64,000 bases of DNA from Bacteroidales bacterium (lineage in GTDB: Bacteria; Bacteroidota; Bacteroidia; Bacteroidales; GWA2-32-17). The notes under the pieces are model-generated. The model was not told where the DNA came from. It saw only the letters and a list, made by a program, of their open reading frames with translations, and ran no database searches. The stretch is taken from assembly GCA_026416095.1 (NCBI GenBank), contig JAOAFV010000041.1:696-64695 (forward strand). Reading direction: 5' to 3'. This document shows positions 36,458-42,159 of this stretch, piece after piece (position 1 is the stretch's first letter; each line of letters opens with the position of its first letter). The translations under genes were made by a program, and so were the position numbers.

Positions 36458-36745
36458 TTTTAAAAATTTTTGCAAAGTAAATAAATTTTACATTAAAATA
36501 AAACGTAAAATTGCTATTGTTTCATTCTTATTTTAGATTTGATGCATTCTTTTATAGGCTTGTTATTAAATTTTTAAGCTTGTTAAAGGAAAAAGTTTTT
36601 TGCTTATTATGAAAAAATGATTACTTAATTGAAAAAAAATTTCTTTCTTTAAAGAATTAAATTTCTGAAGAAAAATTCAGTTTAATAAAATACTATTTTA
36701 AAGAACTTAAAAAGTTTATATTATTATGCTAAAAAAATAAAAAGA

Positions 36746-36839
36746 ATATAGTCTAAGCATGTTTGTTTGAAAGTAAGATAGAAAAAGCACTGTCAGAGCT
36801 TCGCAATGAAATATAGTCTAAACATGTTTTTTTGAAAGT
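36746..36839 (+). repeat. Two copies of a 29-bp direct repeat (27/29 identical) with 65-bp periodicity
   Basis: ATATAGTCTAAGCATGTTTGTTTGAAAGT lies at 36746-36774 and ATATAGTCTAAACATGTTTTTTTGAAAGT at 36811-36839. Confidence 0.7.
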
Positions 36840-37208
36840 CGTAAGAACAATAAATACTTTAAAGAGGGAACAAAGTAAAAATAGTGAATTTTAAAGCTAC
36901 AGCAAATTTAATTAACAATTATTTTTTAATTTTAAACCATAAAATAATGTTAAACAATCGTGAAATTTGGAAGTAAATAGCAGCTAAATAATAAAAAGCA
37001 TATTTGAACATTGCTTTAATGAGAAATGTATTTATCTTAAACGAAATGAAAAGTTTATTGTTAAGAGCAACTATTTAGTAATTAAATATTTTCTTATGTA
37101 TTGTACAATGCATACAGTCTAAAAATATGGTTTAGAACTGCTTTCTAATCTACTGACATGTTATGTTGCAAATAATTTTTGCAAGATTTTAATTTTAAAT
37201 TTAAAAAA

Positions 37209-38007
37209 ATGGTAAATTCAGAAGAATTAAAAAAAAAATAGTTAAAGATGCATATACAGCAATAGTCAAGAATAAAACAAATTGCGGGTGTTTAACATCG
37301 TATTATAATTCAGACTCGTTTTTGTTAGCTAAAGAGAATTATTAAGAATATAGTAGGTCATCAGGCAATTGCCGATTACGGTTTAGGGTGTGGAACATCC
37401 ACAGAAATAGCAAATACTAAAGAAGAAGATGTTGTGTTAGATTTAGGTTCTGGAGCGGGAATCGGTGTATTTATAGCAAGAGGCAAAGTTGGCGAATCAG
37501 GTAAAGTTATTGGTGTTGATTTTGCCAAAGTTATGATTGAAAAAGCTAATAAAAATAAGGTAAAATTAGGTTACAAAAATGTCGAGTTTATATTAGGAGA
37601 TATAGAAAATTTGCCAATTTTATCGGAATCGGTCGATGTTGTTATAAGTAACTGGGTAATTAATTTAGTTCATAGTAAGAAGAAGGTATATCACGAAATT
37701 TTTAGGGTTTTAAAATCAGGTGGCCATTTTTGTATATCCGATGTGTCATTAAATTCAGATTTACCGAAAGGTATATTAGATATTGTAGAAATGTAGGTAG
37801 GATGCGTAGCAGGAGTTTTAAAAAAAGAAGAATATTTAAAAATAATAGAAAAAACTGGCTTTAAAAATATAGAAGTTAAAAAAGAAAACAAAATTAATTT
37901 GCCCGATAGCCTTTTGTTACAATTTATAAATCAAGATGAACTTTCGAAATATAAAAGTCAACAGCCTTTTAATATTTAGCGTTACAATAGTTGCTCAAAA
38001 ACCTTAA
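37209..38007 (+). pseudogene. arsM: Arsenite S-adenosylmethionine methyltransferase pseudogene (multiple frameshifts and an in-frame stop)
   Basis: Stitching three frames gives MVNSEELKK(I)VKDAYTAIVKNKTNCGC...GLGCGTSTEIA...VVLDLGSGAGIGVFIARGKVGESGKVIGVDF...NVEFILGDIENLPI...VDVVISNWVINL...FRVLKSGGHFCISDV...EM*VGCVAG...FSVTIVAQKP*. See the findings for the individual lesions. Confidence 0.85.
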
Positions 38008-38306
38008 TGTTTTACATAGACTAAATAAAATTAAATTTATTGATTTTACGACTTACAAAAGATTTTGAGTAAGAAGATTTGAAAAATAGGGCATTGTTTT
38101 TGAATGTAAAGAAACTTTTAAATACCAACCATAATAACAAAAATGTTAATCTTGTATGGTTCATTCTTTAAAATTAACTTAATGTTAAATGTTTCTTAAT
38201 TTGTAAAAGGCATAGTTATTTTCCGAAGTCAAATGTACTTATTTAAATATTTTTTCTAAAACTTTGAAAATAAGGTTGAAAATTTTTACAATTGCAAAAA
38301 ATTTAT

Positions 38307-39125
38307 ATGTCTCAGAAGCAGTTTCATGTAATAAGTACAGGAATTTCATTAATAACTAATGCCCAAAGAAAAGGTATATTTCAAGATATAAAGGTGTTGG
38401 AAGAACAGGCTTGGCAAGAGATTTTAGATAATCCAAGTGAAATTGAAAAGTTGTATAACTTTTTAAAAGAAAATCCATGTCAAAATAGTGCAGAAATCAA
38501 TACTCTTTATAATTTTATAGGAGACTATAATCATGAATTAATTGAGGTATATCTTTTTGGGACAAATACGAGTGTTAATGAATTAAACAGAATAGTGTTA
38601 AAAAAATTTCTTGCTACTGAGGGGTTTATATTATACGAAGAGCCAGTTTTTGAGGCCTTTATGATTTCAAACGATGAAGAGCGATTTATAAAAGATATTC
38701 ATGCACTTGTGAGCCACTTAATAAATATTGCTAAAAAGAAAATAGATGCAGGTTATCAAGTTTATTTTAACCCCACCGGTGGTTTAAAAGCACATGTAAT
38801 AGCTACATCGGTTGTAGCCTTTATATTAAATTGCCCAACTTATTACATGAACGAGGAATTTAGAAAGGTTGTACTTTTGCCTAACCTTATTTATCTTCCT
38901 AATGAAAAAGAAATAGATTTACTTACAAAATTAAGCGATAAAAAACCTATTAGAGGTAAATTATACGAAACTTTGAAGAAAGATTATTGCGACGAAATAA
39001 ACAATCTTATAAATTGTGGGTTACTATTGGATGAAAAAGATGAAAATGGTATTTCTTTTGGCTTGCAAATAACCGAGAGTGGAATTTTTATTCTTTCGCA
39101 AATTAAATTAAAATATAACCTATAA
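38307..39125 (+). CDS. Stand-alone CARF-domain protein (Cas_APE2256-like) with a probable C-terminal winged-helix domain
   Basis: Ordered motifs are FHVISTGISLITN, SAEINTL, VYLFGTNTS, YFNPTGGLKAHVIATSV and TYYMNEEFRKVVLLPNL, as I recall for the APE2256/TIGR02619 CARF family. The C-terminal 70 aa (LYETLKKDYCDEINNLINCGLLL...LQITESGIFIL) looks wHTH-like. ATG 38307 is preferred over TTG 38292. Confidence 0.65.
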   Translation: MSQKQFHVISTGISLITNAQRKGIFQDIKVLEEQAWQEILDNPSEIEKLYNFLKENPCQNSAEINTLYNFIGDYNHELIEVYLFGTNTSVNELNRIVLKKFLATEGFILYEEPVFEAFMISNDEERFIKDIHALVSHLINIAKKKIDAGYQVYFNPTGGLKAHVIATSVVAFILNCPTYYMNEEFRKVVLLPNLIYLPNEKEIDLLTKLSDKKPIRGKLYETLKKDYCDEINNLINCGLLLDEKDENGISFGLQITESGIFILSQIKLKYNL

Positions 39126-39136
39126 GTTGTTAATTT

Positions 39137-39255
39137 TTGATATCTTATATTGATAATTTTGATAATAATTATATTACTTTAAAAATTTTATAAAGATATT
39201 TTGTTGATTATCAGTAATTTATGATTTTTCTAATTTAATGGCATAAGTATTGATA
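39137..39255 (+). promoter_or_regulatory. Cluster of TTGATA/TTGATT hexamers plus a TAATTTTG -7 box in the spacer between the CARF gene and the downstream gene
   Basis: TTGATA occurs at 39137, 39150, 39159 and 39250, and TTGATT at 39204. An exact TAnnTTTG lies at 39154-39161. Confidence 0.35.
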
Positions 39256-39279
39256 AAATAAGGAGCTAAAATTTTTTTT

Positions 39280-40374
39280 ATGAGTTATAATCTTAAGTTT
39301 TCGTCAGATAAAGTTAAAATTCTAAAAATTAAAAACTTTGAAAATCTTGCTGTTGCTTATATTAATTTTGATGGTGATAAATACGAATACAAAAGTAGTA
39401 AAAGTGCTCTGAAAGATGGAACTTTTTTTATAAAAGAATCTAATGTACCAAATGTTAGGTCGCTTATTGGTATTAACAAAAATGAAATTCCAGTTTTTCT
39501 TTTACGTGGCCAACTGCTTAAAGGTGGAATGCAAAATCGAACCATTAATACCACTATATTAGTTAAGGGTAAAAGTACTATAAATATTCCTGTTAATTGC
39601 GTAGAGATGGGCAGATGGTCGATATTTAACGATACAAATTACAGGTCAAGTGATGATGTTAGTTCAACAAATAATAATCAAAAGAATGAGAACAAGATAG
39701 AGATACCAAGAAGGAGAAGATTACTTATAGAGAAGCTTGCGTTAGGTCAATTAGAGGGCCATCAAGGAGGATTGAAAAAAGAATCAAATTATATCTCTGA
39801 AATAGAAAAGAAGATGAATTTTGAAACAAAAGGGGTAATGGAATTAGCTTTTTTATGTAAGATGGATAAAGAGGTTTTTTCCAAAGGATTAGCACAAACT
39901 GATCAGAAAAGAATATGGGATAATGTTGATGAATTTTTACATAGAACTAATACAAGTTCTTCAACAAGCGATTATATAAAAGCACACGAGAAAGCCAAAT
40001 TGAGTGTTAGCGACTATTTAAAATTTTTACCTTATGAACCTGGTTCAAACGGTGCTATCTTTTTTACTTACAATAAAATTCTCGGATGTGATATTATTTC
40101 AAATAAAAGTGTTTTCGAAGAATATTATAATGATTTACTTGAAAGCTATGCTATGTCTTTAATTTATAATAAAGAACGAGGTGAACACAACGAAGAAAAA
40201 TATAAATATCTGTCTTTAAGCTTATTTGATGAGTTAGAGAATTTAACCGTAAAAACATATGAAGGTATAGACATGGGAAAAAATTTTTTCTTTTCGAATG
40301 ATAATAAGACAATATCAGGTTTATTACTAGATGATGACATTATTCAAATTAGTGTCATGTTTTTAGAAAAATAA
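39280..40374 (+). CDS. DUF6569/ARPP-1-like protein of unknown function
   Basis: The N-terminal domain NLAVAY...IPVFLLRGQLLKGGMQNRTINTTILVKGKSTINIPVNCVEMGRWS matches the hallmark I recall for this family (pVLLl.GE.l.GaKQNR.lN.tiLv...iPVsCVE.GRW). Later motifs are TDQKRIWDNV and GSNGAIFFTYNKILGCDII...LLESYAMSLI. Between them is a low-complexity basic insert (NNNQKNENKIEIPRRRR). Confidence 0.55.
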   Translation: MSYNLKFSSDKVKILKIKNFENLAVAYINFDGDKYEYKSSKSALKDGTFFIKESNVPNVRSLIGINKNEIPVFLLRGQLLKGGMQNRTINTTILVKGKSTINIPVNCVEMGRWSIFNDTNYRSSDDVSSTNNNQKNENKIEIPRRRRLLIEKLALGQLEGHQGGLKKESNYISEIEKKMNFETKGVMELAFLCKMDKEVFSKGLAQTDQKRIWDNVDEFLHRTNTSSSTSDYIKAHEKAKLSVSDYLKFLPYEPGSNGAIFFTYNKILGCDIISNKSVFEEYYNDLLESYAMSLIYNKERGEHNEEKYKYLSLSLFDELENLTVKTYEGIDMGKNFFFSNDNKTISGLLLDDDIIQISVMFLEK

Positions 40375-40531
40375 AAAAGTTTAGCTTATTTTTAAATATT
40401 TGATTTTTGAAAATCTAATCTAATAAATTATTGATAAGTAGCATTAAAATTAATAAACCTAACGTGGTAATAAGTATTTATGTTGCTCAGTAGTAAAAAG
40501 GAAGATAATTAAGGTGTGTGTGTAAGTCTTC

Positions 40532-40646
40532 TATGAGACCTTTGCAAAACTACCTTAAAATAATTTTTTACAAGTAAATATAATTGAAAATCAATATTTC
40601 CAAAATACTAAAAGATCTTTACAAAAGGTTTTGCAAGGGTCTCATA
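40532..40646. repeat. 19-bp inverted repeat (18/19) separated by 77 bp, inside a 0.9-kb ORF-free region
   Basis: TATGAGACCTTTGCAAAAC at 40532-40550 pairs with GTTTTGCAAGGGTCTCATA at 40628-40646. A (GT)5 run lies at 40514-40523, immediately upstream. Confidence 0.75.
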
Positions 40647-41271
40647 CTGTAATTTTGTTTTTACCTAATTATACCACCTATTGTAATAAACTGAGATAAT
40701 TTATATTATGCAGGGTGTACCCCCAATTTTAAATTGATCTTTTAATATTTTAATTTTTTATTAACGTTTTGTAATCTTACATTTTGTAAATAATATGCAA
40801 AATAAAAGTTTTCTATTTTAAGCCTTTATTACTTCATAATTAATTTTCCATTTATTTTATGCATCTTTTTCTGTATTTAAAAAAATATTTTTAACAATTT
40901 TGTTACGTAGCTTATATATCTCAACATAGGTCTTGTAGAGTTTTAAAAATCTTTTGCTGGTGAAAGTTGACTTTTTTATGCTTTTGTGTTAAAAATATTC
41001 GTCTAAAAGTGCAACTATAAAAAAAGTGGTGGAAAGGTAAAGTTTTCGTAGCATAATAATGTTGGTTTAGCGATTATTTCGAAAAAATTTTTTGCTTTTT
41101 TATTACACTAATTCTTTTTTTTAGTATTTAGAAATTAAAACAACTTAAAACATTATAAATTTTATAGAAATAATTCTTTATATTATAGAATTTTGGTTTA
41201 AAAAAAACCTATTTTTTTAAAGATGTTGATAATAAAATTAAAAAAAGCATTAAAATATTTTAAAAATAAGA

Positions 41272-41279
41272 TATCTTTG
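41272..41279 (+). promoter_or_regulatory. Putative -7 box TATCTTTG only 7 nt from the start codon
   Basis: It is an exact TAnnTTTG ending 7 nt before ATG 41287. This implies a leaderless or near-leaderless mRNA. Confidence 0.4.
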
Positions 41280-41286
41280 CACAAGA

Positions 41287-42159
41287 ATGAAGATCAGCAA
41301 CTTGAAAGAATATATAAAAGAAGCAATTTTTATAATAATAGGTTCATTAATAGCAAGTGTTGGGCTAAAAGGCTTTTTATTACCAAACAATTTTTTTGAT
41401 GGTGGTATAACAGGCGTTTCACTTTTTTTAAATTATTTAACAAAAGTAAATGTTTCTATTTTTATTATTCTTTTAAATATTCCGTTTGCTATTTTAGCTT
41501 ACAAAATTTATTCTCGTGTTTTTATAATAAAATTAATTTTTTCTATTTCATTATTATCGTTGATAATATATGCTATAAAAATTCCAGTAATAACTCACGA
41601 CAAGTTATTAATTGCAATATTTGGTGGAATTTTTTTAGGAGCGGGTATTGGCTTTACCATAAGAGGAGGTAGTGTTTTAGATGGTTCTGAAATATTAGCT
41701 TTGTATGTTAGCCGAAAATATAATATTTCGGTGGGTACATTTATTGCCGCATTCAATGTTATTTTATTTGGTATAATTGCAATTTTTATTAACATAGAAA
41801 CAGCTATGTATTCAATTTTAACGTATTTTTCTGCTTCTAAAACCGTTGATTTCATTATTTTAGGAGTTGAAGAGTACATTGGGGTTATGATTATCTCCAA
41901 TAAATGGCAGGAAATACGAAGAAATATCATATACAAATTAAAAACAGGAGTAACAATTATAAAATCAGATCCTAATTTTCCAGATTTAAAAATTTATAAC
42001 AATGAAAGAAATATTTTATTTTGTGTTGTTACACGTTTCGAACTTTCTAAATTACTGAACGAAGTACACGAAATAGACTCAAAATCTTTTATAATTCAAT
42101 ATCCTATAAAAGATGTAAGGGGAGGTTTTCTTAAAAGAAGAAGTAGAATAAAAATATAA
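41287..42159 (+). CDS. YitT-family membrane protein (DUF2179 C-terminal domain)
   Basis: The N-terminus is polytopic with GGITGVSLFLNY and GGSVLDGSEILA motifs. The soluble C-terminal domain contains VTIIKSD...FCVVTRFELSKLLNEVHEIDSKSFII. Confidence 0.8.
   Translation: MKISNLKEYIKEAIFIIIGSLIASVGLKGFLLPNNFFDGGITGVSLFLNYLTKVNVSIFIILLNIPFAILAYKIYSRVFIIKLIFSISLLSLIIYAIKIPVITHDKLLIAIFGGIFLGAGIGFTIRGGSVLDGSEILALYVSRKYNISVGTFIAAFNVILFGIIAIFINIETAMYSILTYFSASKTVDFIILGVEEYIGVMIISNKWQEIRRNIIYKLKTGVTIIKSDPNFPDLKIYNNERNILFCVVTRFELSKLLNEVHEIDSKSFIIQYPIKDVRGGFLKRRSRIKI

Follow-up and report, generated by a model that had tools for sequence, protein, structure and literature searches.

Csa3 (PDB 2wte, 6w11 and 6wxq) is a CARF3 transcription factor in which a ligand-binding CARF dimer is linked with winged helix-turn-helix (wHTH) domains; it binds cyclic tetra-adenylate (cA4) and DNA, and we know of no report of cA4 cleavage by it. 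The crenarchaeal ring nucleases of the Crn1 type, Sis0811 (7pq2/7pq3) and Sso1393 (3qyf), have the CARF7 (Cas_APE2256) fold followed by a wHTH, and to the same CARF7 family belongs Cami1 (CARF7-RelE; 8phj/8phb), which carries a RelE ribosome-dependent RNase effector domain. In Sis0811, residues S12 and K169 are indispensable to the cleavage of cA4 (PMC8643638) and correspond to T10/S11 and K106 in Sso2081 (bioRxiv 10.1101/2022.10.01.510428), while its wHTH has no demonstrated DNA binding and the docking of double-stranded DNA is unsupported in the crystal structures (PMC8643638). The ARPP family has been described in systems centred on ADP-ribosylglycohydrolases (ARG) and proposed to be an enzyme that acts on ribose or sugar moieties through a conserved Cys; two-gene neighbourhoods with HIRAN, WYL transcription factors or a deacetylase have also been reported (Iyer et al., 2022, PMC9503650). 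Here we describe a locus in which the two families stand side by side: in a 64-kb stretch (hereafter the window) of a 79-kb contig from a Bacteroidales metagenome-assembled genome (MAG) with a GC content of 29%, a CARF7-wHTH gene lies upstream of an ARPP-1 gene, in the same direction and with 154 bp between them.

Both open reading frames (ORFs) are found on the + strand, at 38307-39125 and 39280-40374, and all the motifs quoted in the original prediction, which had singled out the pair from the DNA letters alone, are present in their translations. The first gene encodes a protein of 272 aa (GenBank MCX7955057.1), composed of a CARF domain at aa 1-199 (38307-38903, +), delimited by a profile alignment to 7pq2 that covers residues 1-202 and by pairwise alignment, and of a wHTH domain at aa 205-272 (38919-39122, +), delimited by the secondary structure of the AlphaFold2 model and by charge and alignment analysis. 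The proposed membership in the Cas_APE2256/TIGR02619 CARF group was borne out by Pfam PF09651 (E=1e-21, 77.7 bits against a cut-off of 24.8), by TIGR02619 (48.3 against a threshold of 37.45) and by the best PADLOC model, CARF7--CARF (E=8e-35, residues 5-242); the CARF_RelE models of PADLOC also score well on the CARF part. The AlphaFold2 model (predicted local distance difference test score, pLDDT, 90.8) confirms the C-terminal wHTH, and its ten best Foldseek matches are all Sis0811 or Sso1393, aligned over about 280 columns, that is over the full length, with E ~1e-15, template modelling (TM) scores of 0.61-0.63 and 22-24% identity. The next match is Cami1 (E=1e-9), which has the RelE domain where the window protein has its wHTH, and Csa3 is distant (E=6e-6, TM 0.33-0.36). 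By sequence, too, the nearest solved structures are Sis0811 (7pq2) and Sso1393 (3qyf), with a pairwise E of ~1e-11 and a family-profile E of 8e-28.

Because both the sequence and the full-length fold match Sis0811 and Sso1393 and leave Csa3 distant, the window protein is, as judged from sequence and model, a homologue of the Crn1-type ring nucleases and not a CARF3 regulator of the Csa3 type. The Csa3-like architecture suggested originally thus holds for the order of the domains, CARF and then wHTH, and fails for sequence and fold, which are of the Crn1 type (TM 0.62 against 0.34 for Csa3). Membership in Csa3 was ruled out by the profile, since the best CARF3 model of PADLOC gives E=1e-4 as against 8e-35 for CARF7, by the fold and by the charge of the wing described below; moreover, the window protein keeps ring-nuclease residues. 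The NCBIfam equivalog NF040951, 'CRISPR system ring nuclease', scores 52.8 bits against a cut-off of 600, far under its threshold, so that the protein is to be regarded as a homologue and not as an equivalog of the crenarchaeal enzyme.

The catalytic residues are in place. Gly12-Ile13-Ser14 (Ser14 codon at 38346-38348) aligns with the catalytic loop G10-T11-S12 of Sis0811, Ser14 corresponding to S12, and in Gly158-Gly159-Leu160-Lys161 (Lys161 codon at 38787-38789) K161 aligns with K169 of Sis0811 in the pairwise alignment. Ser14 and Lys161 are invariant in a family alignment of 46 members, and the positions aligned with the cA4 contacts of Sis0811 (N18, N65, T86, T88 and Y179/Y180) are kept, being invariant or near-invariant among the 46; all 27 family-invariant residues are retained in the window copy. 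By analogy with the solved homologues, the protein is predicted to cleave cA4 without a metal to a diadenylate ending in a 2',3'-cyclic phosphate (A2>P).

Elsewhere in the molecule the copy has drifted. It is the most divergent of the 46 members, departing from the consensus in 35 of the 110 columns whose conservation reaches 80% or more (median 8), and its helix-3-plus-wing segment has a net charge of -7, the lowest of the 46 (median -1). The conserved R233 has become N233, and the basic wing of the family, K-x-[FY]R[IV][KR]IT-x-[KR]G, reads ISFGLQITESG. The window protein differs from Sis0811 also in having no disordered C-terminal tail. A loss of the original context would fit, because the copy is the most divergent of the family and its wing is without the conserved basic residues. 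The loss of the basic wing weighs against a transcription-factor mechanism and makes competence for DNA binding doubtful; the solved homologue has no demonstrated DNA binding either.

A search by word index recovered 95 full-length relatives of about 270 aa with 37-50% identity, stemming from WOR-3, Thermodesulfovibrio, Kryptonia, Calescibacteria, Aquificales and some archaea; the clade of the window protein is bacterial/thermophile, as against the crenarchaeal Sis0811 and Sso1393. In 42 loci other than the window, in which genes were clustered and recurrent clusters annotated with Pfam, a type III effector operon (Cas10/Cmr2 or Csm1, Cmr3, Cmr5, Csm2, RAMPs) contains or adjoins the CARF7 gene in 37 cases, often accompanied by Csx1 and Cas6, and three of the five others have Cas1/2/6 nearby or lie at a contig edge. 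Nearly always, the genes of this clade belong to or adjoin CRISPR-Cas effector operons of type III-A or III-B, and the link to type III loci is shared with Sis0811 and Sso1393. In one Bacteroidota MAG (CAZQJI01) the CARF7 gene stands directly after the Csm2 and RAMP genes of a type III-A locus (L036, CAZQJI010000051). In another (CAYTKW01) the Cas10/Cmr2, Csx1, RAMP and CARF7 genes of a type III-B locus (L043, 8000-20648) are split up into short ORFs, which points either to decay of the locus or to an indel-rich assembly. In six loci (L010, L015, L018, L021, L035 and L037) the Cmr operon includes a pair of CARF7-type genes, arranged as Cmr3 > CARF7-like > RAMP > Cmr5 > RAMP > CARF7, of which the first is a paralogue that has diverged further (E ~1e-10 to 1e-13 against the family hidden Markov model, HMM).

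Nothing of such an operon surrounds the window copy. A tblastn search of the 64 kb with all the neighbour proteins of the 42 CARF7 loci matched the CARF gene alone, a tblastn search for cas-gene relics in the surrounding pocket gave only noise at E<1, no Cas10, CD-NTase, SAVED or TIR protein came up when the remaining 50 ORFs were scanned with PADLOC, and Tandem Repeats Finder (TRF) detected no CRISPR array in the window. The statement that these 64 kb hold no cas gene, CRISPR array or cyclase was therefore upheld by tblastn, PADLOC and TRF. Since 37 of the 42 relatives' loci are of type III and the window is without cas genes, its CARF7 gene is an orphan of a type III-associated family: a neighbouring type III operon is found for the family and, within the 64 kb, not for this copy.

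The second gene (39280-40374, +; GenBank MCX7955058.1, locus tag N3A01_07710) encodes a protein of 364 aa, defined by Pfam, by two alignments and by an AlphaFold2 model (pLDDT 79.7). It matches PF20208 (ARPP-1) with E=5e-56 and 190.6 bits against a cut-off of 27, and the proposed identity of DUF6569 and ARPP-1 is sound because its relatives carry both names in the databases, 'DUF6569 family protein' and 'ARPP-1 family domain-containing protein'. The residues that are invariant in alignments of 31 (A1) and 62 (A3) members, the window protein included, are all kept: G77, G82, Q85, N86, R87, C107 (codon 39598-39600), E109, R112, W113, Q209 and W213. A lineage-specific insertion of about 65 aa (aa ~137-203; 39688-39888, +), rich in charged and low-complexity sequence, separates the N-terminal beta-rich part from the helical part. 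None of the 30 relatives in A1 has it, and residues 140-203, with pLDDT below 50, are predicted to be disordered. Neither structure searches of the PDB and BFVD nor a sequence search of the PDB gave a significant match for this fold. An exhaustive search yielded 4115 representative clusters, the nearest (P0098) with 43% identity. The protein is an intact but divergent member of the family and is predicted to be an enzyme with a conserved Cys/Gln centre; that it belongs to an uncharacterised group from conflict systems, as stated in the original prediction, is correct.

The locus lies outside the ARG-centred arrangement. ARPP-1 has no adjacent ADP-ribosylglycohydrolase, rhodanese-type, calcineurin-like or other phosphatase gene, and a tblastn search of the window with 118 proteins that neighbour ARPP-1 elsewhere (ARG, Metallophos, DSPc and WYL among them) gave one generic hit, far off. 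The gene neighbourhoods of ARPP-1 were compared in 80 metagenomic loci and in the loci of the nearest relatives of the window protein, about 87 in total. CARF7 was found in none of the ~87, the loci of the nearest relatives included, and conversely the ARPP-1 HMM matched none of the 42 CARF7 loci within 10 kb on either side. Because of these two zeros, the exact pair is unique to the window. The original prediction had made the claim depend on the two genes recurring as neighbours in other genomes, and they are neighbours nowhere else among the loci sampled.

The reading that we prefer, and hold tentatively at a little short of an even chance, is that a stranded type III accessory gene (CARF7) lies in a decaying islet together with a solitary ARPP-1 gene, with no dedicated system joining the two neighbours. 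If the solved homologues are a guide, the CARF7 protein would dimerise through its CARF domains and bind cA4 in a pocket at the dimer interface; the ligand would be converted without a metal into two molecules of A2>P, with Ser14 positioning the 2'-OH and stabilising the cyclic phosphate and Lys161 stabilising the transition state, and the degradation would switch off cA4-activated effectors. The gene, stranded from its operon, might serve in trans a type III system elsewhere in the genome or, alternatively, might evolve under altered or relaxed constraint after the loss of such a system. ARPP-1 would work alone, as its closest relative P0098 seems to do, and the adjacency would have come about because defence genes cluster in one islet and decay there.

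Stranding is favoured because of the habits of the two families just described, with 37 of 42 CARF7 relatives linked to type III genes and no pairing in either set of loci; because P0098 has no regulator as neighbour and CAZQJI01, which carries both families, keeps them unlinked, its ARPP-1 gene (L128, CAZQJI010000017) lying on a separate contig between pyruvate:ferredoxin oxidoreductase and ABC transporter genes; because fold, catalytic residues and cA4-contact residues match Sis0811 and Sso1393 in a copy that is the most divergent of its family and has lost the basic wing; and because the pocket is decaying, as the pseudogene described below indicates, and the type III-B locus of CAYTKW01 fragments together with its CARF7 gene. 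Several observations pull the other way. ARPP-1 recurrently adjoins ligand-sensing regulators, two other CARF types included, and since it recurs beside such sensors, finding an orphan CARF-wHTH gene upstream of it, co-directional and at 154 bp, is a suspicious coincidence. The CARF7 and ARPP-1 ORFs are intact at 29% GC, where random ORFs are short, next to a decayed neighbour, which suggests that selection persists, and both genes match the codon usage of the host. Finally, the type III system elsewhere in the genome is hypothetical, the sequence examined being the 64-kb window.

These same observations sustain a second explanation, possible in our view but rather doubtful, in which a CARF7-wHTH protein recruited from a type III locus forms with ARPP-1 a functional sensor-plus-effector pair and takes the place of the WYL, RtcR-like CARF or CARF3 regulators found beside ARPP-1 in other genomes. 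A ligand, cA4 or a related nucleotide with a 2',3'-cyclic phosphate, would alter the transcription of ARPP-1 or act through CARF7 directly on the ARPP-1 protein, or else CARF7 would produce or use up an A2>P-type substrate of ARPP-1; with its ring-nuclease residues retained, the switch would reset itself. What speaks for it comes above all from the other ARPP-1 loci. The commonest arrangement recovered is a WYL-HTH regulator directly adjoining ARPP-1 (10 of the 80 loci), a pairing already published (PMC9503650). As in the window, a ligand-sensing one-component regulator is there placed beside a solitary ARPP-1, with neither ARG nor phosphatase; the WYL partners differ in being often divergently transcribed, whereas the window sensor is a Rossmann-like CARF7 protein with a C-terminal, non-basic HTH and is co-directional with ARPP-1.

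In three further loci of the 80 (L051, 308-3423; L110, 2-1647; L121, 668-4552) ARPP-1 is adjoined by a full-length RtcR-like activator composed of CARF, sigma54 AAA and HTH parts (PADLOC E=3e-129). In L110, ARPP-1 is preceded at a distance of about 50 nt by a sigma54-type -24/-12 element (TGGTAAAGAACTTGCT), and L121 has a weaker one; the two loci also have in common the box 'TAAGTAATTGATT'. These elements suggest that ARPP-1 may be the regulated target of RtcR-like activators in such loci, in which no conserved third gene was found. No sigma54 promoter was found upstream of either ARPP-1 or the CARF gene in the window, unlike in the RtcR-like loci, where the activator has a matching promoter.

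A second type of CARF partner is met among the nearest relatives of the window ARPP-1. In P0099 (second-closest, 17 contigs) and P0103 (sixth), a full-length protein of the CARF3/Csa3 family is transcribed divergently from ARPP-1 (L124, 3758-6026; L125, 2747-5015; L129, 4053-6038), within a conserved block that consists of a Lactamase_B/RMMBL protein (Lactamase_B), DUF429, CARF3 and ARPP-1 and is embedded in defence islands with BrxC/PglY, JetD and helicases. The region between CARF3 and ARPP-1 shares the conserved stretch AATTAAACATAATATTTAAGTATAA ... GCCTGTACAG ... GGTGGTACA. Both the CARF3 and the RtcR-like pairs resemble the window in that a CARF-domain regulator stands directly beside ARPP-1, and differ from it in CARF family and architecture; the C-terminal wHTH of the CARF3 partner is strongly basic (18 K/R) and its gene is transcribed divergently from ARPP-1, unlike in the window, and neither partner has the Crn1-type catalytic signature, as far as tested. 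A CARF partner of ARPP is absent from the paper that defined the family (PMC9503650), and the CARF3 and RtcR-like partners, which appear to be undescribed, are the most useful by-product of this comparison. The ARPP-1 gene of the third-closest relative (P0100) has a MerR regulator 29 bp upstream. The ARPP-1 gene of CAZQJI01 (P0102) has no regulator, and in P0101 a fragment downstream of ARPP-1 was considered as the start of a WYL-type regulator; the local WYL model did not recognise it and it was left uncounted. In four loci (L045, L049, L066 and L076) ARPP-1 is directly followed, on the same strand, by a conserved protein of about 184 aa, 77-88% identical between loci, which has no sequence match in the PDB and is probably the calcineurin-like phosphoesterase that was counted four times in the Pfam census.

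The exchange of unrelated sensors around a constant partner is a classic mark of functional linkage, and in the window a ligand-binding CARF domain is directly beside ARPP-1, as in the sensor-regulator modules, with a wHTH whose DNA binding is doubtful. The two genes are on the same strand, intact and compositionally native next to a pseudogene, and the scan of the spacer predicted no terminator between them; the strong divergence of a CARF7 protein that keeps every invariant residue could reflect a new function. Against this stands the fact that the pair is a single instance. Pairing is conserved across genomes only for the other sensors, namely WYL, RtcR-like and CARF3 (in the P0099/P0103 clade), so that the expected conservation of this pair as neighbours was not found; the nearest ARPP-1 relative lacks a regulator, the two genes are unlinked in the one MAG noted above to carry both, and the 64 kb contain no source of ligand. 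The weakness of the wHTH, of a type without demonstrated DNA binding and here with the most acidic wing of the family, counts specifically against a transcription-factor mechanism; if the pair is functional, classical transcriptional control is less likely than coupling by way of the nucleotide or of contact between the proteins. The stand-alone module of the original prediction is accordingly unrepeated as an exact pair, and a module of the kind proposed is plausible by analogy, because ARPP-1 recurs beside other ligand-sensing regulators.

The 154-bp spacer (39126-39279), studied by sequence, motif statistics and a promoter and terminator scan, had been described as rich in TTGATA. It contains three TTGATAA, one TTGATAT and one TTGATTA; in the window as a whole TTGATAA is not enriched (43 occurrences against 34 +/- 6 expected). 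As an operator this motif was set aside, being without window-wide enrichment, chosen post hoc as a local cluster and overlapping a promoter-like element. The spacer has one putative Bacteroidota-type -7 element (TAATTTTG), recognised by eye.

The CARF7 and ARPP-1 genes form an islet amid housekeeping genes, in the interval between ahcY and yitT, flanked on both sides by non-coding DNA or pseudogene. Upstream, the only gene-like content of 36476-38306 is an ArsM-like S-adenosylmethionine methyltransferase pseudogene (37209-37982, +), recognised by a Methyltransf_31 match (E=2e-33 on a 120-aa fragment) and by a translation with five in-frame stops. Downstream, the only ORF of at least 50 aa in 40375-41286 is that at 41223-41399 (58 aa), which overlaps its last 64 bases. 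Because the pseudogene carries five stops while the CARF7 and ARPP-1 genes are intact, the pocket is judged to be decaying, and the low-coding, decayed pocket of the original prediction is confirmed by these two stretches. An Rfam scan of the pocket gave no match. As to the CARF7 gene, its GC content at third codon positions is likewise indistinguishable from that of the host.

In the same upstream stretch, a repeat search found two 30-nt direct repeats (AATATAGTCTAARCATGTTTKTTTGAAAGT) at 36745-36774 and 36810-36839 (36745-36839, +), with a period of 65 bp and none expected by chance. Both end at the 3' side in ...TTTGAAAGT (...TTTGAAAG), and the 35 nt between them have a GC content of 40%, against 21% in the intergenic surroundings. 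A weaker third copy is at 37112-37137, only two copies being good. With their CRISPR-like geometry the two repeats may be the remnant of an array, as a candidate only. This reading was tried and not adopted: there are two copies only, the repeat and the 35-nt spacer have no match in IMG/VR, and with the repeats of related CARF7 loci the only common trait is a ...TTGAAA[CG]-like 3' end, with no specific likeness; it is kept as a lead.

Two inverted repeats were noted in the pocket. One of 26 nt, with arms at 36830-36855 and 38035-38060 that are complementary at 23 of 26 positions, brackets a 1.2-kb segment with the ArsM-like pseudogene and shares part of its left arm with the end of the second 30-nt repeat; one of 60 shuffles gave a pair as good, and the structure could mark the boundary of a cassette or of an inversion. 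The other, at 40532-40646, 158 bp downstream of ARPP-1, has arms of 19 nt with a single mismatch, separated by a loop of 77 nt; the predicted long hairpin (-36.9 kcal/mol, z=-2.95) occurs as a single copy in the window, has no Rfam match and may be a relic resembling a miniature inverted-repeat transposable element (MITE) or a structured RNA.

The decay of the pocket invites a third explanation, which we consider improbable: a CRISPR-Cas locus would have decayed on the spot and left the CARF gene behind, without function and not yet interrupted by a stop codon, with the two 30-nt repeats as the last trace of the array and ARPP-1 as merely the next gene. The pseudogene with its five stops, the CRISPR-like period, 3' end (...TTTGAAAG) and GC-rich spacer of the repeats, and a CARF7 copy that is the most divergent of its family and has lost conserved residues of the wHTH would all suit such a relic, and L043 would be an example of such decay under way in another Bacteroidota MAG. 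A dead gene, however, is hard to reconcile with an 819-bp ORF that is intact at 29% GC, native in codon usage and in possession of all 27 invariant residues, the catalytic Ser and Lys included; furthermore, no cas-gene relics were detected in the pocket, and the repeats are only two and, like their spacer, unmatched in IMG/VR. It is very improbable that the CARF gene is a mobile-element ring nuclease, an anti-CRISPR against type III signalling left by a degraded prophage or the like: viruses do use ring nucleases, of another family (Crn2/AcrIII-1; PMC12409355), and inverted repeats do flank the pseudogene while another forms a hairpin downstream of ARPP-1, but no relative of the CARF7 clade was seen on IMG/VR viral contigs, the PADLOC scan matched no integrase and the 64-kb window has no tRNA gene, members of the family sit within type III operons of their hosts and the composition of the gene is native.

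Both proteins of the locus belong to known families, and the pair, if functional, would be a variation on the published two-gene theme of a sensor-regulator and ARPP. A bolder version, which we think unlikely, is that a Crn1-type CARF7 was recruited from type III CRISPR-Cas as a self-resetting nucleotide sensor of ARPP-1, which would then be a widespread effector or repair enzyme under interchangeable WYL, CARF3, RtcR-CARF and CARF7 sensors. If this were true, the chemistry of ARPP-1 would be tied to molecules that end in a 2',3'-cyclic phosphate, and a CARF signalling module would work without a neighbouring Cas10. The family at stake is large, with over 4000 representative clusters: ARPP-1 proteins share a conserved Cys/Gln centre, and no function has been defined for them by experiment. 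If WYL and three types of CARF are interchangeable sensors of nucleotide signals, these partners would hint at the molecule that ARPP-1 handles, and its biochemistry could be approached with cA4, A2>P, RNA with a 2',3'-cyclic phosphate and derivatives of ADP-ribose. On the side of CARF7, an intact Crn1-type gene far from cas genes opens two possibilities, that ring nucleases act in trans across the genome or that CARF sensors are reused outside CRISPR; and if the adjacency to ARPP-1 is coincidental, the locus would be an example of type III accessory genes that outlive their operons.

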